From: Candidatus Kaiserbacteria bacterium
GTDB lineage: Bacteria > Patescibacteriota > Minisyncoccia > Phycocordibacterales > Phycocordibacteraceae
Assembly: GCA_026396675.1 (NCBI GenBank)
Contig: JAPLWI010000008.1
Location: 42,883 to 106,882, forward strand
Direction: 5' to 3'
Length of the DNA: 64,000 bases
Of this stretch, positions 30,142 through 54,450 are shown piece by piece. The stretch's first letter is position 1; each line of letters begins with the position of its first letter. The position numbers were made by a program, and so were the translations under genes. Under the pieces are notes generated by a model. The model did no database searches, was not told the DNA's origin, and saw only the letters and a program-made list of their open reading frames with translations.

Positions 30142-30864
30142 CTACTGGGCAAGTAATTTTTGCAAGTTTGTAATTCTTCCAACCATTCGTTCTTTGTCCG
30201 CGCCAGATAAATAGCTGGTATCAAAAGACACCAATTGGTCGCTAAGATTTTTCTTTTGATCTGAACTCATTGCGCTCACTTTCGACGATAGAGAATCAAG
30301 TGCTGTTAAGCGTACGTCAATTGCAATGGATTCATTACGTGCAATGGACATCATCTTATCCATGAACGATGCGACGTCAGTTTCTGCTTTCGCCATCACC
30401 ATAATCGCGTTCATGGCAACTGATTCCCTGCGAAAATCTTCTCCTGTTCTTTGTGTTCCTTCTGGAAGGGCTTTCGCGGCATGGATGTCGGAATCTGCGG
30501 ACTTGAGCGCTGCTTGAAAAGTCTGCTGATCTTTTATGAGTCCATACACGGTCGGAAGTATTACGAGCATCGAAACGAGAATGATTATTACCCCTGGGTT
30601 TTCTCTGCCAATTTTTCTAAGGACAGCGTGTATTATCCAACCGTAAACGAAGAACACTACAGGTAGAGTGAAGAGAGCAATTACATAAAATAGAAGTCCG
30701 TAGCTGAAAAAGTCACCAACAAACGGAATTACCCATGAGATAGGGTTCAACAGGAAGATCTTCGAACTTTCCCAAGCAGGAAAAGATACTATCCCTAAAG
30801 CAAAACCGGCCCAGCTTCCCAACATTTTAAACGGGTTGTATGATTTTTTTATTTCTTGTGGCAT
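30142..30864 (-). CDS. hypothetical polytopic membrane protein (240 aa) inserted between rpsJ and rplC
   Basis: Four TM helices are followed by a soluble C-terminal domain. No family was recognised. Confidence 0.45.
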   Translation of the reverse strand: MPQEIKKSYNPFKMLGSWAGFALGIVSFPAWESSKIFLLNPISWVIPFVGDFFSYGLLFYVIALFTLPVVFFVYGWIIHAVLRKIGRENPGVIIILVSMLVILPTVYGLIKDQQTFQAALKSADSDIHAAKALPEGTQRTGEDFRRESVAMNAIMVMAKAETDVASFMDKMMSIARNESIAIDVRLTALDSLSSKVSAMSSDQKKNLSDQLVSFDTSYLSGADKERMVGRITNLQKLLAQ

Positions 30865-33285: not shown

Positions 33286-33690
33286 CTAAACAGCGTAAGT
33301 AGTTCGTGCTGCAAAAAAGTCAGACACAGAGAGTATGCTTCTCATTCTTGCTGCTTGATATGTAATGAATAACACAGGCAAAGTAAATAACATGCTTCTA
33401 ATCGGATACACGATGAAGGAAAGAGCAAGGCCTACTCCTCTTGGGTTTCTTTTAATAAAAGATTTCGCATTTTCAATTGCAAATCCATAAATCTTTTTGT
33501 TTTTTCCTATACGAACTAAAACTCCGTCTTCGACAGGAACATAGAAACTGCCCTTTGGAAAAGATTCCCCCATGAGAACCATGTCTGCCCTACGATTATA
33601 GGAAACTGACCATGCATCACTCTTAATCCGCCTATCCAAATTAGGATTAGCTAGCATTATTTCCTTTAGTTCATTTAGGTTTTGTTCCAT
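33286..33690 (-). CDS. DUF2283-like small protein (putative antitoxin-like partner), with an atypical hydrophobic C-terminal extension
   Basis: SVSYNRRADMVLMGESFPKGSFYVPVEDGVLVRIGKNKKIYGFAIENAKSF matches the DUF2283 pattern (Y-D/N-x-x-AD … D … G-[IV]-x-G-[IF]-E-I-x-x-A). It overlaps the upstream ORF by 16 nt. Confidence 0.45.
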   Translation of the reverse strand: MEQNLNELKEIMLANPNLDRRIKSDAWSVSYNRRADMVLMGESFPKGSFYVPVEDGVLVRIGKNKKIYGFAIENAKSFIKRNPRGVGLALSFIVYPIRSMLFTLPVLFITYQAARMRSILSVSDFFAARTTYAV

Positions 33691-34070
33691 ATAGTTTCTT
33701 CTCCTTCTGGGAAAAATGCCGTGAAATAAGCAGTCAACACTCTTATCTTACCATACCATGTATGTTCTAGCACAACCTTCATATGTTGATTCGAGTAATC
33801 TTTATCTCCAGAAAACCAAGCATAATAACACTTTCTTTTATCCTCATTCCTATCTTGACGCACTTCATTTGGGTTTTCAATTGCTTCCCTTACCGTCTTA
33901 AAATGTGTCTCTATTTCTAAATGTCCAGTGTGATTCTTCTTTCCATCTCTCACCGCTAAATAGTCCTCTTCAAACCATACTACTGGTTCGTGATTCATTC
34001 CCTCAACAAATCTATGCAATATCTTCCACGAAAGCATGCTTTGAAAATAGCACGCTACTACTTTTTTCAA
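33675..34070 (-). CDS. small hypothetical protein (131 aa), possible DUF4258-type toxin-like partner of the DUF2283 gene
   Basis: Its gene order and overlap with the DUF2283-like ORF are typical of such pairs. Weak His/Tyr-containing motifs (…HTGHLEIETHF…KIRVLTAYF) are present. The family assignment is tentative. Confidence 0.35.
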   Translation of the reverse strand: MKKVVACYFQSMLSWKILHRFVEGMNHEPVVWFEEDYLAVRDGKKNHTGHLEIETHFKTVREAIENPNEVRQDRNEDKRKCYYAWFSGDKDYSNQHMKVVLEHTWYGKIRVLTAYFTAFFPEGEETIWNKT

Positions 34071-37218: not shown

Positions 37219-37246
37219 TAAAATAAGACCCGCGAGGGTCAACGAC

Positions 37247-37275
37247 AATATAAAGGAATTGCGAGAAGAAAGCAA
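37247..37275 (-). promoter_or_regulatory. putative rpsL promoter TTGCTT-N17-TATATT (minus strand) with a short GACCC/GGGTC leader hairpin
   Basis: Read on the minus strand: TTGCTTtcttctcgcaattccttTATATT, followed by a 28-nt leader to the ATG. Confidence 0.4.
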
Positions 37276-37285
37276 CTGTGCACTC

Positions 37286-38110
37286 CTACTTCTCGTCAAT
37301 TGGTTCGCGATATGGGTCAACTGAATAAGGTCTTGAAGAAACAGGGGACAGCGGCTGAACGGGAGGAGTTGATTTCGGTTGAACTGTCGGGGGCAATATT
37401 ACTCCAGGAAGATTCGGTGGTGGAGGGGCAGTTCGTGCGGGGACAGAAAGTTTCGGCGTTGTGTTGAATTCGATATGTGGTTCTTCGCGGTCTTCTAGAA
37501 GTTTTTCGTTTGTTATCGGCTGTGGTGTAGATACGACAGGGCGCGGTTGCATTGAACTAGGTGGTGGCAATTTATTTTCCAAATGAAAATATTTCTTTGC
37601 CTCGCCAGAGCCCTGCGCGGAGGCGGGTGGCGTTTGCGGTGGAGTATAAGCCGGAACTGGCGCGTGTATTTGCGGTGGTCGCGGAATTGCAGTCGGCGTC
37701 GCACTCCACGAGCGCGGCGGCGCAGGAGGTAAATTAGAAGGTGGAGTTGGTATTTTGAGCGGTTGTTGTTTGAGTATTTCAGCTCCTTTACGCATTTCTT
37801 CTTGAAGAGGTATGAAAATCTGAGTGTTTACATCTTGAATTATGTTATTGATAGTTTGTTGACTTATATTCGCCTCTTCCACGAGCGCTTGAGTGAATTC
37901 TGCTGGATTCTCAATACCCATTAAGAGCAACATTATTTCTCGCTCAAGAATGCTCGCTTGATCAACATGGAGCGCATATTTAGTCATCAAGTTTTTCGCA
38001 ACTTCTGAATATTTTCCTTGCGCGAGATACTGCCGAATCGGCGGCGGCAATGTTTGCATCACCTCTTTGATGCTTTTTTCTAAATCCGGTTCTTGTTGTT
38101 GTGGTTCCAT
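37286..38110 (-). CDS. proline/glutamine-rich hypothetical protein (274 aa)
   Basis: A folded N-terminal ~100 aa is followed by a long Pro-rich low-complexity region ([42 protein letters not shown]…). Confidence 0.45.
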
Positions 38111-38116
38111 AGTGAA

Positions 38117-40309
38117 TTACTTTTTATCTCCTTCCTCTTTTGACTTTGCTTTTGCTTCTTCAACCTTCTTTTCAAAATTCTTCATGTAATCGCTCATACC
38201 GCCAGTTGCGTTTTCTTTCTTTTCCTCTTTACCTCCGGATTCCTTTTCTTCAGATTTTTCAAGAAGTTCTTGAATTTTATTAAAACCATACTTGTCAGCT
38301 TTCTTTCCTTTCCTTTTAATAATTTCCTTTGCTGCGTCTGTATTAGCTGCGAGGTTGATATATTTGTTAAAGAACGATTCTTGATCAAGACCGAGTTGTA
38401 GATTCTTTGCGTATTTTGCTTGAGCACCCACATTCGACTTCGCAATCTTCATCTCATTTTCTTTTGCTTCTTTTGCTTCTTCTGCTTTTGTCTTTACTGT
38501 CGCTTTTTCCTGAAGAGTTTTTTGTGCCTGCTGTAATTTCAGCTCTGCATCTCTAACGCCGAATTGGCTAGTGGTAAGATTTTTCCGCGCAACTTCAAGT
38601 TTTTGCCCAGTATCTCGTGTGACACCTCCAGGAGAGAATTGACGTTCTTGTTCTTCTTCCTTTTCAAGTCGACCGACCTCTGCTTCTTGTTTATGAAGTT
38701 CCTGTACAGCAGCTGTGCCTTCTTCACGCGCCGAATCCATTTGAGTTGATGCTGTATTATGTTCTTCTTGCGCTTTCTTTAGATTTTTTTCTGTCAGCGC
38801 AACACTTTCCTTCTCTTTCCCAGTAAGCCCTCGTCCTGTAAGTTCTGCTGCATAACTAGTTCTCTTCCCTATTCTTTCTTTTAGCTCAGCTCGATATCCA
38901 CCTTTTTGCGCCTGGCCTGCATTAATGCCACCGCCGGGGAAATTTTTTAGTGCTCCCGTACCACGAACATCAAAGCTTCCTTTAGCAGCACGATCAAGAC
39001 CTTTTACGACTCCTGTTCCTAGAAGGGGTATACTCGCAAACCGCGTATTGCGCAGACCTCTAGCGGCTTTATTAGCGCCCCACCCAACCGTAGAGCGCAT
39101 ACCAAAAGCAGTTGCGCCAAACGAAAGTTTTCCTGCGGTTTTTGATGCCCAGTCAGCACCGATGGCGCCCAATTTTTTTGAAAAGACAACAACAGAGAGA
39201 AGCAATCCCATTGCGACAAGGAAAGAAAGTAAGAGACCAGCAAAACCAGTGATACCTCCAGGAATAAAGATACTGTCCCATCCTGTATTTTTATCTACGC
39301 CAAATCCAGTAAGGAACTGCACATCGGTAATGACAGCGAGCGCTATATAGAGCAAAAGAAGCAAAATCGGAGCAGTAATAGTTTGTTCAATAAGCATATC
39401 TTTCCACTGCTTCGCTATGCCGGAGAGTTTAGGTATCGCATAACCAGCGAAACCGATTGGCGCGATAATAATAACGAAAATCAGTATGACGAATCGTGAA
39501 ATGAGTATGAATGAGAGCGAAAACATCACGAATGCCGTGACGAGAAAAAGTAAGATACCCATAAAACCGATAAACCACGGATTAGCGCCACTGAAAATTG
39601 CCGTATTTGTAACCGCTTTACCATAGATGGACTGAAGCCCCAACTGCCCCATAATCTTGCTCGAGATACCATTGCTCGTAGCATTTTTTATGTTATCAAA
39701 ATTTAAATCTTGTGCTCCAGCTGGATTGCCGCCGTTGATCTGCGTATAAAATTGCGTTGCAAAAAGATTCCCTGTATCAACCACCGCTTCAGAGATGAAA
39801 AGTGAAAAATTGAGAAAGACGGCGGATATGAGTAATGTTGGAAGCATCTTGGTTCCCCATCCGAATTTTTCTGTATTCAGAATAGTTGAAATACCGACGG
39901 CGAGAAAACCGAATATGAGAATAATATTGCCAATATCGCGCAATATCCTCCAAACAACACCGACAGCTGTGAGATTGTTCACATATTTCCCCATCGTAAC
40001 GACGGTGTAGTACACTGCGTTATCCAGCGTAATCGCTGCAACTCCAACGAGCCAGGCAAATAGACCCATAATCCTAACCATCACGCCGTCGTAGGCGGAA
40101 TCCATACTTTGATTGAATTGAGTTGGATTTTGCGCGCCAGCGGCTGGTGTTGCCGCAGTTTTTGGTGTTGCTGGATTTTGAGTACTAGGAGAATCGAAAG
40201 CCGCAGCATCTCCTGCCGACTCATATTGAGCGTGCGCGGCGGGTGCAACGCCCGCCGCGCCCGTAACAAGTGCGAGTGAGATGAGAGAAATGGAAAGAAA
40301 TCGTCGCAT
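38117..40309 (-). CDS. polytopic membrane protein with signal peptide, ~7 TM helices and a ~340-aa charged coiled-coil cytoplasmic tail; VirB6/TrbL-like topology
   Basis: The signal peptide MRRFLSISLISLALVTGAAGVAPAAHA-Q is followed by a TM block (…IILIFGFLAVGISTIL…FVILIFVIIIAPIGFAGYAI…LLLSFLVAMGLLLSVVVF) and a KE-rich C-terminus. The ORF track starts 57 nt further upstream, at 40366. Confidence 0.45.
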   Translation of the reverse strand: MRRFLSISLISLALVTGAAGVAPAAHAQYESAGDAAAFDSPSTQNPATPKTAATPAAGAQNPTQFNQSMDSAYDGVMVRIMGLFAWLVGVAAITLDNAVYYTVVTMGKYVNNLTAVGVVWRILRDIGNIILIFGFLAVGISTILNTEKFGWGTKMLPTLLISAVFLNFSLFISEAVVDTGNLFATQFYTQINGGNPAGAQDLNFDNIKNATSNGISSKIMGQLGLQSIYGKAVTNTAIFSGANPWFIGFMGILLFLVTAFVMFSLSFILISRFVILIFVIIIAPIGFAGYAIPKLSGIAKQWKDMLIEQTITAPILLLLLYIALAVITDVQFLTGFGVDKNTGWDSIFIPGGITGFAGLLLSFLVAMGLLLSVVVFSKKLGAIGADWASKTAGKLSFGATAFGMRSTVGWGANKAARGLRNTRFASIPLLGTGVVKGLDRAAKGSFDVRGTGALKNFPGGGINAGQAQKGGYRAELKERIGKRTSYAAELTGRGLTGKEKESVALTEKNLKKAQEEHNTASTQMDSAREEGTAAVQELHKQEAEVGRLEKEEEQERQFSPGGVTRDTGQKLEVARKNLTTSQFGVRDAELKLQQAQKTLQEKATVKTKAEEAKEAKENEMKIAKSNVGAQAKYAKNLQLGLDQESFFNKYINLAANTDAAKEIIKRKGKKADKYGFNKIQELLEKSEEKESGGKEEKKENATGGMSDYMKNFEKKVEEAKAKSKEEGDKK

Positions 40310-40314
40310 ATAAA

Positions 40315-42042
40315 TTACCAGTAAGAACCACCGGACTCGTTGGAAGGAACGACCGGAATATCGCACGATGCCTTCAGTGAATTTGCATTCGCGCTGATGA
40401 GATTCATTTTGTCTAAAAGAGAACCGCCAGAAACAGTAAGTGATCCGGAAGGATTTGCAGATGCCGTTCCGAATGCCTGCGAATCCTGCAAAACGCTCGC
40501 GATATCGGAGCCAGTCGGCGACATCGTTTGAAGCGTTTGCATATCGGCTGCATAAATGTCGCCAGACGCCGCATCAGTAATGGAATTTTGTTCACTTTGT
40601 ACTTTTTGCGCCATAGCATTAGCGGTCGCGATGGTTGCGAATGCCGCCGCTATTTGATCAAGTACTGGCTTAATCTCGGTTGTAAGTGCCGTACGCGAAG
40701 CGGTTGCTTGTGCGTTACTGGCGCTTATGAATGGCGTTAAAATTTCTCCGGCCGAAGCATTCCCAGAGTAAGTTACGTTCAATAAGTCGTGTGCGGCAAC
40801 CGCCTGCGATGAACAGTAGCTCGCGAGCGTCGCTGCGCTAGTTGATGCTGTATTGGCTGCAGTGCTGATGGTATTCCACGCCGATTGATATTGAGAAATG
40901 CGACTTGCCATATCAGAGCCAATCGGAAGTGTTGCAGCATTTTGCGCTACGACGCTAGACGGCGTAGTGCCTAAGAATCCTGATGACTGATATTGCGAAA
41001 ACAAGGAGTTCCTATTTGACGAAGAAGTATTCCCAATACCGAGAAGACCGCCAGACGTACCGCCGCCGCCGAAAACGCTAAACGTAAGACCTGCCGTTTT
41101 TATGACCGCACCGATATTTCCTAAGATGCTGTTGATTTCAGAAGCCGTGCTCCCCATCTTGACGAGCTTGTCCTGGTCGGTGCCGAGGGCTTTATCCAGA
41201 GATGATTTTATGATCGAGCCGGGCGTTTGAATCTTGCCAGGCGAACCGTCTTTGTTTGTACAAGGATCACCAGAGCTGGAAGTGGAGCTGCCGCCGCACC
41301 ATGATTCAAAGCCCTGTCCCCAATTAAGCTCTGTGATGCGAGTGGACTGCGCGCCGCTGACAACAGAAGCGAGCTCGTTCTGCGAATTTTGATAGAGAGT
41401 GTAAGGATTATTCTGATTCTGTGTAGTGAGTGCAAACCATTCTTTTACGCCGCCTTGCGACCAATCGCCAGCGAGAAACTTATTAACATTCGGCGACGAT
41501 TTGGCGAGTGTGCATTGATTGGCGGCGAAGAATCCTGCCATACTCGTATTCTGAAGATAATTTGTGGTAAGAGAGGAAGTAATTGAGGCGGCGAAAGGTG
41601 AGTTGAGACCTTTTAGTCGCGCAAAAAAAGCGAGTGCCTGCGTGTCGCCGACTGTTTGGAGTGTCCCCGGCAAATTTGTCACAAACTGTGCTTTGCCAGA
41701 GCCGTTAGTATTTCCATTTACGAATCCAACTACACTCGCGGTAATTGACTTCAGTAAATTTCCTGACAACGCGAATGCAAGCGGCTGAAGCACGTAGGAG
41801 TTGACCTGTTGTGCGACGGTCGCGGCGGCGATGACGGGAGCTGCAATGGCCGTAATGGTATTCTTAACGGCGCTGATGGTGCTCTCTAATGTGGTTTTAA
41901 TATTTGTATATAAATTTGGTCCAATTTCTTCTACTGCTTCCTGCGCACGAACTTGTTGCGGTGCAATTAGAAAAACAGAAGGTGCAACAAGTGTAATAGT
42001 GAGGAGTATTGCAAGTGCCGATATTGAAAAGTGCGATTTCAT
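40315..42042 (-). CDS. secreted low-complexity (Ser/Thr/Ala/Asn/Gly-rich) protein, 575 aa
   Basis: The signal peptide is MKSHFSISALAILLTITLVAPSVFLIAPQQVRA. The composition is biased, with no recognisable enzymatic motif. It overlaps the upstream gene by 4 nt. Confidence 0.45.
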   Translation of the reverse strand: MKSHFSISALAILLTITLVAPSVFLIAPQQVRAQEAVEEIGPNLYTNIKTTLESTISAVKNTITAIAAPVIAAATVAQQVNSYVLQPLAFALSGNLLKSITASVVGFVNGNTNGSGKAQFVTNLPGTLQTVGDTQALAFFARLKGLNSPFAASITSSLTTNYLQNTSMAGFFAANQCTLAKSSPNVNKFLAGDWSQGGVKEWFALTTQNQNNPYTLYQNSQNELASVVSGAQSTRITELNWGQGFESWCGGSSTSSSGDPCTNKDGSPGKIQTPGSIIKSSLDKALGTDQDKLVKMGSTASEINSILGNIGAVIKTAGLTFSVFGGGGTSGGLLGIGNTSSSNRNSLFSQYQSSGFLGTTPSSVVAQNAATLPIGSDMASRISQYQSAWNTISTAANTASTSAATLASYCSSQAVAAHDLLNVTYSGNASAGEILTPFISASNAQATASRTALTTEIKPVLDQIAAAFATIATANAMAQKVQSEQNSITDAASGDIYAADMQTLQTMSPTGSDIASVLQDSQAFGTASANPSGSLTVSGGSLLDKMNLISANANSLKASCDIPVVPSNESGGSYW

Positions 42043-43064
42043 GATTTTTGTTTTGCCGTCATATCACTTATGAGATTTACGAGAGAGGCGCCAGGAGTAT
42101 CTTTTGTGAGAGAAATGCCGGCATTTGCGTATATTTCTCCAATATTTATAAACGCATTTCTGAGTGCGAGTACCGCCTGCGGATACTGGTTTAGTGCGAG
42201 GATAGTTGCCAAAGGATCGTCGTTCACGCGCGTGAAGTCGGTTGTTATTTCACCAATGCGCATCATCGCATTGATAAGTGCGAGGTCGGCGGTGGCGAGT
42301 TCTTTCGGCACAGGAAGAACCGCGAGTCCGGCAGCGCTATTCCGATATGCTTTCGCTATCGAAGCGATATGAGGAAGTGTGGTGGCGTCATTATTCTGAA
42401 CTGCCGATGTAAGATAATTGATTTCACTGGTTGTCGCGTTGCTAGTATTCTTCAAAAGTACAGCTTCTGCGCTTACCGCAAACGCTTTAAGTGTGTCTGT
42501 GCCGGAACCAGAAACTGTGAGGTCTTCTACTGTTTTAAAATCGGGTGCGGCGGCAATGGCTGACGAGAAAGAGTTTAATGCTTCATTTGAAATGGCTGAG
42601 ATATCGCTCTCAGAAAGTTCCTTGCCGCCGTTGGCACTCTTTGCCGAAAGATAGAGAGTAATGAAATTTTTTGCGAAAGCGGCAGTGAGAGTATCGTCGG
42701 CTGGAGCCGGCGGAAGCGAGCTGCCTACGATCGCGGACGTGTCTGGTGAAGAAGTGGCGACTTTTATATCAGCGATTGCTTTTGGTACGATAAGCCCTTT
42801 CGTAACTGCCTCACCGTCGGTCATTCCGAGATGAAGAGAATCAGCATTGTTCGGATTCGTTCCGTATAGCGCCTCTTCCCAGTTAGGAAGACCATCGTTG
42901 TCAGAATCCTTCGTCGCGATTGCTTTTAAGAGTGCCGTTTCGGCCGAGGCCTCGGCCACAGGAGGCGATGTAATGCCGCGTGCGAGCACGAATGCGCCGA
43001 TAATAAGCGCTACCGAAAAGAGCGTTGCGGCCGGAACACGCCAATGTTCGAGAATCCTTCCCAT
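42039..43064 (-). CDS. secreted protein with a thrombospondin-type-3-like Ca-binding motif DSDNDGLPNWEE (start taken at MGRILEHW; the ORF track extends to 43205)
   Basis: It has a signal-anchor (AATLFSVALIIGAFVLARG) and a DxDxDG motif. It is the first gene of a three-gene minus-strand operon. Confidence 0.45.
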   Translation of the reverse strand: MGRILEHWRVPAATLFSVALIIGAFVLARGITSPPVAEASAETALLKAIATKDSDNDGLPNWEEALYGTNPNNADSLHLGMTDGEAVTKGLIVPKAIADIKVATSSPDTSAIVGSSLPPAPADDTLTAAFAKNFITLYLSAKSANGGKELSESDISAISNEALNSFSSAIAAAPDFKTVEDLTVSGSGTDTLKAFAVSAEAVLLKNTSNATTSEINYLTSAVQNNDATTLPHIASIAKAYRNSAAGLAVLPVPKELATADLALINAMMRIGEITTDFTRVNDDPLATILALNQYPQAVLALRNAFINIGEIYANAGISLTKDTPGASLVNLISDMTAKQKS

Positions 43065-43129
43065 GGTACTTCCATTTAGTATAACAGTCGTGGAAAGAGA
43101 GTGGGTACGGAATTGGTATAAATAGTGTA

Positions 43130-46215: not shown

Positions 46216-47043
46216 ATGATTGCTTACACCGGTCCGTCGGGTACGATTGCCGATGTTGCGAGTTCTACGCCATCTGACCGTATTTCAATCTATGTCGTGC
46301 GCCCGGGCGATACTCTTTCAGATATCGCGGATATGTTCGACGTCTCGATAAATACCATTATTTGGGCTAATAATCTCTCTGGAGTAAAAGATGCTCATCC
46401 GGGCGATACACTCATAATTCTTCCGATTTCTGGCATTAAACGCACTATTGTAAAAGGTGACACATTTAAATCACTTGCAAAAAAATATGGCGCTGATGCA
46501 AAGGAAATCGCGCAATTCAATGGCCTTGATTTGTCAGAACCGCTCGCGATTGGTTCAACGATTATTATCCCTGGCGGAGAGGTCGCACCTGTGGCGCCAA
46601 AAAGTTCATCGCGTCGCGTAGCAAGTGAGCCGTATATTGGCGGAAGCGGCAGCGCACAGACCGGTTACTATAGTAATCCTGTGCCTGGTGCTCTTATCAC
46701 GCAGAGAGTTCATGGTTGGAATGCTGTAGATCTCGGGGCCGCGCGTGGCACGCCGATTCATGCTGCCGCTGATGGCACTATTATCATCGCGCGCAGTAAT
46801 GGCGGTTGGAATGGTGGTTACGGTAATTATGTCGTCATCACGCACGAGAATGGCACTCAAACACTGTATGGCCACATGACGCACGCAATTGTTTCGTCTG
46901 GGCAGTCGGTTTCATCCGGTCAGGTTATTGGCTATGTCGGGTCAACTGGCGAATCCACTGGACCGCACCTCCACTTTGAAGTCCGTGGTGCAACTAATCC
47001 ATTCCGCAATTGCCGAGTCGGCAGCGTTTGTTCTCCTCAATAG
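46216..47043 (+). CDS. LysM (x2) + M23 family metallopeptidase (cell-wall hydrolase); the true start is probably upstream and non-canonical
   Basis: Two LysM motifs (YVVRPGDTLSDIADMFDVSINTIIWANNL; VKGDTFKSLAKKYGADAKEIAQFNGL) and an M23 core (…VDLGAARGTPIHAAADGTIIIARSNGGWNGGYGNYVVITHENGTQTLYGHMTH…) are present. An in-frame upstream region encodes a signal-peptide-like segment. Confidence 0.8.
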   Translation: MIAYTGPSGTIADVASSTPSDRISIYVVRPGDTLSDIADMFDVSINTIIWANNLSGVKDAHPGDTLIILPISGIKRTIVKGDTFKSLAKKYGADAKEIAQFNGLDLSEPLAIGSTIIIPGGEVAPVAPKSSSRRVASEPYIGGSGSAQTGYYSNPVPGALITQRVHGWNAVDLGAARGTPIHAAADGTIIIARSNGGWNGGYGNYVVITHENGTQTLYGHMTHAIVSSGQSVSSGQVIGYVGSTGESTGPHLHFEVRGATNPFRNCRVGSVCSPQ

Positions 47044-51360: not shown

Positions 51361-52260
51361 ATGGAAGCAGAACCTGCAAAACGACAATTTTTGGAATACA
51401 TAGAGATTGAACGCGGGCGCGCGGTGAAAACAATTGAAAATTATGACCAGTATCTTACGCGCTACTTCATGCAGATGAACATAAAGAGTGTCGGTGATAT
51501 CAGTGAGCAGAATATCCGCGAATTCCGTCTCTGGTTAAATCGCCAGCCCGGCACTGGCAACGGTTCGATGAAACGCCGCACGCAGAATTACTATATGATC
51601 GCGCTCCGCGCGTTCTTAAAGTTTCTGCGTAAACGAGGAATTGAATGTATCTCGCCAGAACGCATAGAACTAGCCAAACTCCCTGAGCGGGAGCTCGATC
51701 TTATCTCACCCGCTGAACTTCAGCGGCTTCTCGCGTCGGCAGACGGCGCCGAAGAACGCGGTCTCCGCGATAAAGCGATACTTGAACTTTTTTTCTCCAC
51801 AGGTCTTCGTGTTTCGGAACTCTGTGCGCTTGATTGTGACCTTGATCTCACCCAAGATTCTTTTTCTGTGCGCGGCAAGGGCGAAAAAGTGCGAGTCGTC
51901 TTCCTCTCCCCCGCTGCTAAGAGTGCTGTCGCCGCATATCTCAAAGCGCGAAAGGATATGGCGGAGGCGCTTTTTGTAAATATTAGAAGCGATAAAGCGA
52001 TTCCGACTCGTCTAACACCACGCTCGGTAGAGCGCATCATAAAAAAATATGCAATGAAAGCCGGCATCACAAAAAAAATGACCCCGCACGTCCTCCGCCA
52101 CGTCTTCGCCACCGATTTACTCAACAACGGCGCCGACATTCGTTCCGTCCAACAACTCCTCGGCCACGCTTCAATCAACACAACGCAGATTTACACGCAC
52201 ATAACGGACTCTCATTTGCGAGAAATCCACAAAAAATATCACAATAAAAACAGTAGTTGA
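51361..52260 (+). CDS. xerC: tyrosine recombinase XerC/XerD family
   Basis: The N-terminal SAM-like domain is followed by a catalytic domain with …HVLRHVFATDLLNNGADIRSVQQLLGHASINTTQIYTHITDSHL… (R..H..R..Y catalytic residues). Confidence 0.85.
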   Translation: MEAEPAKRQFLEYIEIERGRAVKTIENYDQYLTRYFMQMNIKSVGDISEQNIREFRLWLNRQPGTGNGSMKRRTQNYYMIALRAFLKFLRKRGIECISPERIELAKLPERELDLISPAELQRLLASADGAEERGLRDKAILELFFSTGLRVSELCALDCDLDLTQDSFSVRGKGEKVRVVFLSPAAKSAVAAYLKARKDMAEALFVNIRSDKAIPTRLTPRSVERIIKKYAMKAGITKKMTPHVLRHVFATDLLNNGADIRSVQQLLGHASINTTQIYTHITDSHLREIHKKYHNKNSS

Positions 52261-52262
52261 TT

Positions 52263-53291
52263 CTATTTTCCGACCCTTTCAACCATAAACTTTACCGCAT
52301 CATCCATATTTATCGGTTGAATTTCTATGTGCGGATATTTTTCTTTAAACACTCTAAATATTTCATCAGAAAAAGCTTGCCCGATCATGGGCACATTATC
52401 AAAATCCAAAATTATGGAGTCAAATTTATCCAAACCATCAAGAATTCTTCGAGCTTGAGAACGGGATATATGTACACCATCTCCAGAAGTATAGAGTTTT
52501 ACCTTAATTTCAGTTTTGTTGAATGCAAAATCTGTGCCCACGCTGAATTCCCTGAAGAGGGCACTCAAGTGCCTGTTAGATTTTACATCGATTGTAAATA
52601 CGACTCTTGTTCCTCTTTTTAATGCAGGACGTTTTTTGTAGAACAGTTCGCGAGTTTTGTTATTAATCACTAGGATATATCCATAACTCTCAAGAGTGAA
52701 AACATCCCCTGCTTTGGATGTAAAGAAGATTCCTTGGCCGGAATGTGATTTTGGCATTGTTGTCGTCTTACCTTTCAGGAGATCCTGCATGGCTTCAATC
52801 TCTGTCCTCAACTTTTTTTCGCGCATAACATTTCTAAACACACCGATTCCAAAATCGTTAACAATAAAATTTAACTTGCGATTTTGAACCGACATCTCCA
52901 CTTCAATGTATTTAGACTTAGAGTGTTCAATAGCGTTATTCACCATTTCAGAGAATGAGTAGTTCAAGATGCTTTTGATGTTTTCTGGAAGCAGTCCAAT
53001 GGGAGGATATTGCGCCAGAATATCTGCATAGATTTCATGTTCCTGCAATTTATAATTCTTGATTCGCTTGCTTATTTTTGTAGGAAAAGATCCATTTTCA
53101 TTTACCGATTCGGACAAAAGATAGTAAGCCGCACTTGTCGATCCAACTTTAATAAGCTTGCCTTTCGCAACAAGATCGTTGATCAGCACTACTGCGTATT
53201 GCCTAGAAACCCTAAATAAAGCAACAACATCGCTACTTCTGAGCTTCTTTTTGATTCTTGCTATTTTTACTATCTCCAGTTCTCTATCCAT
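52263..53291 (-). CDS. wHTH + GHKL (HATPase_c) ATPase + C-terminal STAS-like (DUF4325-type) domain protein, 342 aa
   Basis: The N-terminal winged helix is …VVALFRVSRQYAVVLINDLVAKGKLIKVG…. The N-box is EMVNNAIEHS, the G1 box NDFGIGV and the G2 box SGQGIF. The C-terminal …SIILDFDNVPMIGQAFSDEIFRVF… is DUF4325/STAS-like. Confidence 0.5.
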   Translation of the reverse strand: MDRELEIVKIARIKKKLRSSDVVALFRVSRQYAVVLINDLVAKGKLIKVGSTSAAYYLLSESVNENGSFPTKISKRIKNYKLQEHEIYADILAQYPPIGLLPENIKSILNYSFSEMVNNAIEHSKSKYIEVEMSVQNRKLNFIVNDFGIGVFRNVMREKKLRTEIEAMQDLLKGKTTTMPKSHSGQGIFFTSKAGDVFTLESYGYILVINNKTRELFYKKRPALKRGTRVVFTIDVKSNRHLSALFREFSVGTDFAFNKTEIKVKLYTSGDGVHISRSQARRILDGLDKFDSIILDFDNVPMIGQAFSDEIFRVFKEKYPHIEIQPINMDDAVKFMVERVGK

Positions 53292-53347
53292 ACCACTATG
53301 ATATTCCAGTGTTTATTGGTTGTCAACCACTTTTAAATTCATTGTAA

Positions 53348-53434
53348 ACTGATTGTAAACAACTCTACACTCACATCACCGACGCGCACCTGCGCGAGGT
53401 GCATAAGAAATATCACTCAAACGGGAGTCAGTAA
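53348..53434 (+). pseudogene. relic of a tyrosine-recombinase 3' end (last ~24 codons, including the catalytic Tyr) from a second, diverged Xer-like gene
   Basis: Frame-2 translation reads TDCKQLYTHITDAHLREVHKKYHSNGSQ*, against the XerC C-terminus …TQIYTHITDSHLREIHKKYHNKNSS*. It is preceded by an in-frame stop at 53345 and the tandem repeat ATTGTAAAC-TG-ATTGTAAAC (53341-53360). No upstream remainder of the gene is present. Confidence 0.55.
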
Positions 53435-54369
53435 TGTTTTAAAGCCAATTTAATTTTCGGATTGTTATACCAGTCTTTATCTTCAAAATACGCATCTGGC
53501 CCATCCTTTATAATTTTTTCCGTTGCTTTCCTCCCATCCTCAATTCCACTTGAAAAAAGACTGTAGGCCATAAAGCGATTTTTTCTAACAATTGCCTCTA
53601 CCACATCTTTATCTTCCGCAAGATTTGAACGCTCTGCCAGATTTCTTAAGTAGCTATATCCACCAGAATCGTGATCATATTCGTCATTAATTGGCATAGA
53701 ATTTATTATTTCAAGCACTATGTTTTTAGAATAAACCTTGCCTCTATCATATGCCAACAGAGGAGATAAGGCACCAGGATTGCCCATTCCTTTCACATAG
53801 CGCAAAATCATTGCGTCATTATTCAGAAAATCAATTGCCTTATCATCACGCATAGTTTGAAACATAAGGTTATAATCCCCTGCCTTTCCTCCTAATTTTT
53901 TAAACCGAGCAATATAATCATCCATCTTCTCTTCCGGAGACTTTTCGCCTTGTTCCTTGTTTTCTGCTACTACTGGTTCTTCCTTATCAACCGTCATTGA
54001 CTCAGTTTTTTCCATTGCTGGAGGTTGCACATTCCCACCCTTAAGCTTTTCCAAAATTTCTGCTGCTTCTTTTTGGGACTTTTCTGCGTCCAATTTCGCC
54101 TGCTCGGCAAGTGCCGCTTCCCTGCCTGCTTTTTCTTCTGCGGCTTTTGCTTCGTCAATCCCTTTATTGATTTCCAATGCTTCTTCTTGAGCATTGCCCA
54201 TCATTTCAACTTTTGCCGTTTCCATACTTTTTGCCTCTTGTGCTAGTTCTGCAACCTTTCCATAATCCCCTGCCGCAACAGCATCGGTAAGTTCCTGTTT
54301 CTTTTGTGCAATACCTGCTTCATTTTCATCAAAGACCTCTCGCGAGCTTGTTGGATTTTCGTTGGACAT
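53428..54369 (-). CDS. hypothetical protein: N-terminal Ala/Glu/Lys-rich coiled coil plus a C-terminal globular domain (314 aa from MSNENPTSS)
   Basis: No recognisable family. The ORF track starts 63 nt upstream, at 54432. Confidence 0.4.
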   Translation of the reverse strand: MSNENPTSSREVFDENEAGIAQKKQELTDAVAAGDYGKVAELAQEAKSMETAKVEMMGNAQEEALEINKGIDEAKAAEEKAGREAALAEQAKLDAEKSQKEAAEILEKLKGGNVQPPAMEKTESMTVDKEEPVVAENKEQGEKSPEEKMDDYIARFKKLGGKAGDYNLMFQTMRDDKAIDFLNNDAMILRYVKGMGNPGALSPLLAYDRGKVYSKNIVLEIINSMPINDEYDHDSGGYSYLRNLAERSNLAEDKDVVEAIVRKNRFMAYSLFSSGIEDGRKATEKIIKDGPDAYFEDKDWYNNPKIKLALKHY

Positions 54370-54450
54370 AAGTTTGTTATTTAATCCCTTGAGAATACCA
54401 ATGGGGGGGCAAAACGCAATGTGGTTCTGCACTGCCGATCAAATTGGGTT

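Follow-up and report, generated by a model that had tools for sequence, protein, structure and literature searches.

The locus considered here raises the question of whether a channel-like membrane protein and the exported proteins encoded beside it form a surface module of their own, or whether they are one part of a larger machine, the remainder of which is encoded elsewhere on the chromosome. The genes concerned, which we designate A to D, lie on the minus strand of a 64,000-nucleotide stretch of a metagenome-assembled genome (MAG) of Candidatus Kaiserbacteria (contig JAPLWI010000008.1, positions 42,883 to 106,882), and this whole stretch is referred to below as the window. An earlier note, made from the sequence alone, had described three of these genes as an operon for secreted and polytopic proteins with a VirB6/TrbL-like component and, since no VirB4 or VirD4 ATPase was seen in the window, had suggested that they could constitute an orphan surface module for host attachment or exchange.

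Our analysis leads to a different answer, to which we assign a probability of about 0.8, namely that genes A to D form one transcription unit encoding the membrane and envelope part of a chromosomal, non-conjugative type IV secretion system (T4SS) of the Gram-positive, MPF-FATA-like kind in the Kaiserbacteria lineage, and that this part has been split from the ATPase half. The Patescibacteria T4SS, to which the unit belongs on this reading, is already known (PMC10633639, PMC12102498). Few machines have been demonstrated to be indispensable for the epibiotic growth of a patescibacterium in culture, and it is one of them (PMC10633639); the organism in question is Southlakia epibionticum, in which SEML1_0006-0019 encode the system (Wang et al. 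2023, PMC10633639).

Organisation and conservation of the four-gene unit

Genes A (42039..43064, 341 aa), B (40315..42042, 575 aa) and C (38117..40309, 730 aa) are co-directional open reading frames (ORFs) on the minus strand, located exactly where the earlier note had placed them, and the NCBI annotation of the same MAG, in which the contig extends over 132 kb, gives identical products for gene C (NTU85_00955, 730 aa) and gene B (NTU85_00960, 575 aa). Describing them as a three-gene operon was nevertheless inexact because a fourth gene on the same strand, gene D (37286..38110, 274 aa), starts 6 nt after gene C, and this position is kept in nearly all related loci. Coupling of the genes through ATGA overlaps was found at the A/B junction, where the overlap is 4 nt, but not at the B/C junction, which carries a 5-nt spacer. 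The predicted signal peptides of A, B and C correspond to N-terminal hydrophobic segments with conserved AxA-type sites, these sequence features being the sole basis of the prediction. The unit is flanked upstream by rsmA/ksgA and uvrD and downstream by rpsL, rpsG, fusA and tuf.

A total of 82 related loci were collected, 80 of them from a scan of one genome per species and two from long metagenome contigs. The order A>B>C>D on one strand is present in all 82, wherever the contig reached, and the arrangement is far beyond chance; the operon is therefore conserved across related genomes with shared synteny, rather than its genes being scattered, as the earlier note had allowed they might be. 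The spacing is also characteristic, with A and B overlapping by 4 nt in 58 of 67 loci, while B/C spacers range mostly from +1 to +8 nt and C/D spacers from +2 to +20 nt. The usual flanks are comM, a LysM-M23 peptidase gene, uvrD and rsmA on the upstream side and, in 66 loci, rpsL-rpsG-fusA on the downstream side. Interspecies identities for the A to D proteins amount to 30-65%, in contrast to 75-92% for the products of the flanking housekeeping genes, and this fast evolution is in line with surface exposure. In many relatives rsmA and gene A are about 1 kb apart, and the interval carries an extra gene of about 324 aa on the opposite strand (for example L002:6183-7157), which is not present in the window.

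Gene C and the VirB6/TrbL family

Gene C encodes a VirB6/TrbL-type protein. Both hydropathy and an AlphaFold model (pLDDT 82, pTM 0.64) place about seven hydrophobic helices within residues ~73-377, following a signal-peptide-like N-terminus (AHA followed by Q), and this exceeds the at least five transmembrane (TM) helices by which polytopic inner-membrane proteins are assigned to the VirB6/TrbL superfamily. They are followed by a charged coiled-coil tail of 353 residues (69 K+R, 52 D+E), for which long helices are modelled at 497-558 and 565-624. A conserved Gly-rich juxtamembrane segment extends to residue ~480 and the tail beyond it varies in sequence and length, such that gene C products range from 565 to 946 aa among the relatives. 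The occurrence of seven K/R residues among the 41 that follow TM7 argues for the tail being cytoplasmic, and the topology proposed earlier for this protein, with about seven TM helices and a charged cytoplasmic coiled coil, is confirmed by hydropathy and by the model. The layout fits the "extended VirB6" class, which is defined by at least five TM helices together with a large C-proximal hydrophilic domain (PMC12857230).

The family assignment is supported by orthologue Pfam matches and structural ranking, in addition to the T4SS gene context described below. When the model was compared with the PDB using Foldseek, TrwI, the VirB6 protein of R388, occupied ranks 1, 2, 4 and 7, with weak scores (E 0.035-0.5, target-length-normalised TM-scores 0.47-0.49) and with the full-length target aligned over about 300 columns; the remaining matches were coiled-coil noise from the tail. 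Pfam TrbL (PF04610) matches 10 of 34 gene C relatives, and those scanned score 24.8-25.7 bits, against a cut-off of 25.9 bits, across profile positions 24-214 of 215. For calibration, PrgH of pCF10 scores 29.2 bits, Orf15 of Tn916 17.9 bits and TrwI 170 bits on the same profile, so that the gene C relatives are bracketed by PrgH and Orf15. Moreover, the orthologue in locus L078 passes the TrbL_4 profile (PF19597), with 29 bits against a cut-off of 27 bits. NCBIfam matches were confined to transmembrane families of conjugative elements, with NF045889, a family of integrative and conjugative elements (ICEs), reaching 22 bits against a 70-bit cut-off.

Other searches added little. The gene C protein and its family profile yielded only coiled-coil noise from the tail among sequences of solved structures, a tblastn search of 72,556 plasmids produced nothing relevant and there was no match in PHROG. 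The structure and profile checks which the earlier note had proposed have thus given a divided result, with TrwI heading the Foldseek list and an orthologue passing TrbL_4, while E-values and TM-scores are weak and the direct profile comparisons considered below are not significant. In our opinion gene C should be annotated as a VirB6/TrbL-family T4SS protein and not as "hypothetical".

Linkage to the PrgI-TrsD-VirB4 genes

ORF sizes, Pfam scans and tblastn searches with TrwK, PrgJ, Orf16, TrwB and PcfC all confirm the earlier observation that no VirB4- or VirD4-like ATPase is encoded in the window. This absence favours the proposal of a VirB4-independent module, in which two secreted proteins and a VirB6-like channel would by themselves serve attachment to the host or exchange with it, as do the presence of a promoter specific to the unit and its physical separation from the ATPase block in most of the sampled genomes. 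The evidence from the related loci is against it.

Reference VirB4 proteins gave tblastn matches in three divergent loci of the 82 (L077, L078 and L080) and in none of the other 79, and these three are exactly the loci that lack rpsL after gene D. The PrgJ match (E = 4e-38 to 2e-36) lies about 1.2 kb downstream of D. In each of the three loci a PrgI/VirB3 gene (PF12666, 42.6 bits) begins 14-20 nt after D and is succeeded by a gene for a TrsD-like protein, which resembles the VirB4 N-terminus, and then by one for a CD1110-family VirB4 (375 bits against a cut-off of 325 bits). Genes for a 3-TM protein, a secreted protein, a pilin-like protein and an anchored protein complete a contiguous T4SS cluster of 11 genes and about 12.5 kb, after which yidC, rnpA and dnaA follow. 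Across the related loci, PrgI (PF12666), a TraC-like/TrsD protein and a T4SS_pilin protein (PF18895) accompany VirB4.

In the split genomes a PrgI-TrsD-VirB4-x-x-pilin-x block is located beside yidC-rnpA-(rpmH)-dnaA-dnaN, on the same contig as A to D and 48-68 kb away from them. On the 993-kb complete chromosome OY969413.1, gene C lies at ~704-706 kb and VirB4 at 774.5 kb (distance ~68 kb); on JACPGH010000005.1 gene C occupies 52-54 kb on the minus strand and VirB4 114.8 kb on the plus strand (60.6 kb); and on a 159-kb contig the corresponding positions are ~62-64 kb and 112 kb (~48 kb). The divergent orientation of the two blocks is certain for JACPGH010000005.1, where both loci derive from one NCBI record, whereas for OY969413.1 and the 159-kb contig the loci were taken from different record copies and are divergent only if both copies share their orientation. 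Since the blocks are divergent and the DNA between them corresponds to the upstream flank of gene A, the split arrangement fits a single inversion with one breakpoint exactly between D and prgI, the position of the far breakpoint being deduced.

The possibility that the VirB4 block carries a second VirB6 of its own was rejected; none of the block's proteins in the split genomes matches the gene C profile and none has five or more TM segments, leaving gene C as the only VirB6 candidate. Coupling proteins were sought by tblastn with TrwB and PcfC, and none was found in the window or in loci L001-L082. For the VirB4 loci L090-L092, the gene tables list no coupling protein or relaxase family, dedicated relaxase profiles not having been used. 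Six of the genomes that carry the module could be identified by name in Table S1 of the phylum-wide survey (PMC12102498), and each of them is listed there as VirB4-positive. Extrapolating from its relatives, the genome of the window would itself carry a VirB4 block, some 48-68 kb beyond gene C and past the right end of the window.

An orphan module is therefore unlikely. Three relatives have PrgI-TrsD-VirB4 directly adjoining these four genes, the VirB4 block lies on the same contig in the split genomes, both units carry a common promoter element (see below) and the named carriers possess VirB4. Moreover, no protein of the VirB6 family is known to function without VirB4 (reviewed in PMC12857230).

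Promoters and transcription units

The unit is opened by an extended -10 element, TGTTATACT, at 43078..43086 on the minus strand, which ends 13 nt before the start codon of gene A and is assigned as a promoter on the basis of its consensus and conservation. In 52 of 67 loci a TGnTATAMT motif is found between -60 and +40 relative to the start of gene A, with 13 nt as the usual distance from its end to the ATG, and no such element precedes B, C or D in these 67 loci. The fuller form, cTGsTATACT, has a background frequency of 0.006 per 100 nt, and it also ends 7 nt before the prgI start, in split and contiguous loci alike. Elements upstream from prgI were located at L090:8921-8929, L091:8899-8907, L092:8035-8043, L077:13026-13034 and L078:13062-13070. 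Because the same element precedes A and prgI, the cluster is best described as two units with one promoter signature, which the rearrangement has separated cleanly. The 7-nt spacing implies that the mRNA of the VirB4 unit would be leaderless or nearly so, and the common element that the two T4SS units may be co-regulated.

At the downstream boundary (37219..37275, minus strand) the spacer between gene D and the rpsL ATG (37218) carries the promoter of the str operon, with a -35 TTGCTT at 37275-37270 and a -10 TATATT at 37252-37247, followed by a hairpin GACCC-N4-GGGTC at 37240-37227 and a U-rich tract. The conserved form is sigma-70-type (TTGCAT, 17 nt, TATATT), with a hairpin of invariant stem (GACCC-N4-6-GGGTC) about 6 nt further on and the rpsL ATG 10-14 nt past the hairpin, the U-rich tract lying between them. 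The window and 30 of 67 loci keep both promoter and hairpin. Over 1.3 Mb of locus sequence the hairpin motif occurs only 39 times, 30 of these in the D-rpsL spacer, and the hairpin has no match in Rfam. It was picked up by a terminator scan, and the generic promoter and terminator scan of the region yielded, overall, counts no higher than for shuffled sequence. The rpsL mRNA probably begins with this hairpin as a 5'-terminal stem-loop, which may in addition stop transcripts reading through from A to D. A role solely as terminator of the unit was rejected, because with the conserved promoter immediately upstream the hairpin forms at least the start of the str transcript as well.

These results bear on a second alternative, in which a VirB6-fold protein has been co-opted for a housekeeping role in the envelope, such as membrane or wall organisation tied to growth, and the adjacency to the str operon is meaningful. 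The core-genome location and universally conserved position of the unit would suit such a role, given that rpsL-rpsG-fusA adjoin it in 66 loci, as would the coiled-coil cytoplasmic tail of C and the Pro-rich partner D, neither of which has a T4SS precedent. It is rendered improbable by the conserved promoter of the str operon in the D-rpsL spacer, which defines separate units and makes the adjacency to ribosomal genes positional rather than a sign of co-transcription, by the contiguous-type relatives, in which prgI and not rpsL follows D, and by the promoter signature of A to D, which is common with the prgI unit and not with str.

Products of genes A, B and D

Gene A, which always opens the unit in related loci, encodes a predicted extracytoplasmic protein. 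The N-terminal part is a hydrophobic segment, either anchor or signal peptide, in which an A-Q-A site followed by S is conserved, and the protein continues with a TSP3-type motif, a variable linker and a conserved helical domain of ~230 aa. The Ca-binding motif noticed earlier was borne out, in that residues 53-74 match the bacterial TSP3 repeat PF18884 over all 22 profile positions (1-22), with 28.4 bits against a 25-bit cut-off, and D53, D57, G58, L59 and W62 (DxDxDGLxxW) are invariant in 46 orthologues, whose alignment shows a mean column identity of 61% and lengths of 327-351 aa. On these grounds the motif is considered to be a putative Ca-binding site. No relative was found when the gene A profile was compared with solved structures.

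Gene B encodes a predicted secreted protein, rich in Ser, Ala, Thr, Gly and Asn, that starts with a hydrophobic export signal. Four cysteines (249/261 and 410/560) are kept in 96-98 of 98 homologues and there are none in the products of A, C and D, which points to two disulfides in gene B formed outside the cell. The AlphaFold model is almost all-helical, with a C-terminal bundle of long helices (residues ~370-565) predicted very confidently and an N-terminal half predicted with modest confidence. The family is a large one, comprising 2,771 clusters at E <= 1e-3 among 1.84 billion representatives. Nothing was matched by the gene B profile among solved structures, and no similarity to VirB5 (TrwJ, TraC) was found in sequence or fold. 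The composition and secretion reported for gene B in the earlier note stand, whereas its likeness to an adhesin or pilin does not; the modelled fold is helical and disulfide-containing, without beta-rich adhesin domains or the pilin-like combination of a helix and a globular head.

Gene D is predicted to encode a cytoplasmic partner, as it has neither a signal peptide nor a TM segment. A conserved N-terminal domain of ~105 aa is followed by a variable Pro-rich linker, and there is a conserved LLEDHEEPHI motif together with a C-terminal DPYREP motif, of which D265, P266, Y267, R268 and E269 are invariant in 42 orthologues. Searches of Pfam, NCBIfam, PHROG and the PDB gave no matches. In the contiguous loci gene D lies directly between the VirB6 gene (C) and PrgI.

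A gene for a LysM and Peptidase_M23 protein is present in the window at 46216-47043 on the plus strand, and its position (comM, M23, uvrD, rsmA) and opposite orientation are kept in most related loci. M23/LysM proteins are among the VirB1-like hydrolase candidates in the survey of Patescibacteria T4SSs (PMC12102498), and the product could be the wall-opening enzyme of the system.

A probable split type IV secretion system

Genes A, B and D are assigned to the T4SS because of their invariant order around the VirB6 gene and the contiguity of the unit with PrgI-VirB4, and the following scheme can be proposed. Gene C would be the VirB6 equivalent, forming a translocon platform with PrgI/VirB3 and the VirB4 ATPase. 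A and B would be exported partners, probably building or decorating an extracellular, wall-spanning or host-contacting part, and D a cytoplasmic partner that may connect the tail of gene C to the ATPase block. The second unit would supply PrgI/VirB3, TrsD, VirB4, the 3-TM protein, a secreted protein, a VirB2-like pilin and an anchored protein, encoded beside yidC-rnpA-dnaA. The two units, contiguous in some relatives, would have come to lie ~48-68 kb apart in the window lineage through a single inversion between them. By analogy with Southlakia, the system would serve host-dependent growth and not conjugation.

A more specific proposal, which we regard as tentative and rather doubtful in its details, is that A, B and D are unrecognised T4SS subunits which join the extended VirB6 in an envelope sub-module transcribed on its own, with B, an elongated helical protein stapled by disulfides, as the functional counterpart of a VirB5 tip or of a translocator in contact with the host envelope and D coupling the tail of C to the TrsD/VirB4 motor.

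Several observations weigh against the split T4SS. The gene C protein of the window has no Pfam TrbL match at E<=1, so that its membership is drawn from orthologues and a structural match which, although top-ranked, is weak (E 0.035, TM-score below 0.5), and hhalign comparisons of the gene C family profile with the single sequences of PrgH, TrwI and Orf15 gave no significant result, for which reason the VirB6 relationship is considered to be remote. A, B and D show no detectable similarity to known T4SS subunits, their participation being read from gene order alone. The VirB4 block of the window's genome is placed by reference to relatives, the search having covered the 64-kb window. Finally, VirB4 identity is 86-90% across the clade (homologues of the L078 VirB4), comparable to ribosomal proteins, and the much faster evolution of A to D would also fit a looser functional coupling.

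A third alternative, that the unit is a remnant of the transfer region of an ICE or plasmid, could draw on the best family matches of gene C, which are transmembrane proteins of ICEs and conjugative plasmids, and on a tyrosine recombinase ~8 kb away in the window, but it is highly improbable considering that 82 species-level genomes agree in gene order and in the housekeeping genes on either side, that no relaxase or coupling protein was detected at any locus (dedicated relaxase profiles not being used) and no plasmid matches were obtained, that the GC content resembles that of the surroundings, and that the phylum-wide survey concludes likewise (PMC12102498).

If the split T4SS is accepted, what is new here is modest and consists of three conserved candidate subunits, the organisation in two units with a common promoter, and an inversion that keeps the VirB6 half out of sight of surveys centred on virB4. 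Within a large clade of Paceibacteria the VirB6 gene is accompanied by genes for three proteins that are conserved and evolve fast, two of them exported and the third cytoplasmic, and that are unmatched by the profiles tested. These proteins, A, B and D, are specific candidates for the components of the Patescibacteria T4SS that would span the envelope or contact the host and are still missing. A survey restricted to the +/-20 genes next to virB4 would overlook the VirB6 half in split genomes, and the common promoter signature, kept despite the separation, offers a simple handle for locating further co-regulated components.

Other features of the window

The tyrosine recombinase gene (51361-52260) adjoins the patch of lowest GC content in the window (52-54 kb, GC 0.39), which holds a 334-aa ORF without a Pfam match and a gene for a histidine-kinase-like ATPase that includes a DUF4325 (STAS-like) domain; the region 51361-54432 may be a small integrated island. 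Two ribosomal operons are interrupted. A 240-aa membrane protein without a Pfam match is encoded at 30142-30864 on the minus strand, between rpsJ and rplC in the S10 operon, and an unannotated ORF is present at the same place in L001, while the str operon is broken by two ORFs of 134 and 131 aa at 33286-34070 on the minus strand, located between tuf and fusA. The cumulative GC skew has its minimum near 58 kb (window ~56-60.6 kb), coinciding with a switch in gene strand and four tRNA genes (Arg, Gly, Pro, Gly). Since dnaA is not present in the window, this minimum probably reflects gene orientation and not a replication origin.

Comparison with known systems

The T4SSs of Patescibacteria have been described as MPF-FATA-like, with VirB4, TrsD, PrgI, VirB6 and VirB2-like pilins and no relaxase (PMC12102498), and KsgA (RsmA) and dnaA/rnpA/rpmH are typical neighbours of virB4 (Quinonero-Coronel et al. 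2025, PMC12102498). The related loci studied here share these properties. They encode a VirB4 of the CD1110/MPF-FATA type, TrsD, PrgI/VirB3, a VirB6-like protein and a VirB2-like pilin; they are chromosomal and origin-proximal, by dnaA, rnpA and yidC, with ksgA/rsmA as neighbour, and no relaxase or coupling protein was found nearby. They differ in that the VirB6 gene lies in a four-gene unit of its own with A, B and D, which the tested profiles do not match, and in that the unit of the window lineage is located 48-68 kb from virB4, beyond the neighbourhood of +/-20 coding sequences covered by the survey.

For gene A the likeness is to the bacterial TSP3 repeat, with a full-profile match above the cut-off and invariant acidic positions. 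It departs from the multi-repeat architecture of adhesins in having a single repeat of this kind, placed close behind the export signal and ahead of a helical domain of no known family.

Among conjugative systems, profiles of A, B, C and D gave no meaningful matches in an HMM search of 214 ORFs from R388, pCF10 and Tn916, and those of A, B and D found nothing among solved structures. Structurally, the gene C model matches TrwI/VirB6 of R388 (PDB 8rt9, 8rtd, 7o3v) best, and both are polytopic membrane proteins of the Pfam TrbL family. The two are nevertheless dissimilar in several respects, TrwI scoring 170 bits on TrbL against at most 25.7 bits for the gene C family and being a protein of 342 aa, without a signal peptide or a long tail, that works with VirB5 in a diderm stalk, whereas no VirB5-like protein was detected in the A to D system.

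PrgH of pCF10 and Orf15 of Tn916, the accepted VirB6 equivalents of Gram-positive conjugation systems, resemble the gene C family in that their TrbL scores are similarly weak and their genes are also found together with PrgI/VirB3 and a CD1110-type VirB4. Orf15, with 725 aa and an extensive hydrophilic portion at its C-terminus, also belongs to the extended VirB6 type. The pCF10 and Tn916 systems are, however, mobile machines for relaxase-dependent DNA transfer, while A to D constitute a core chromosomal locus.

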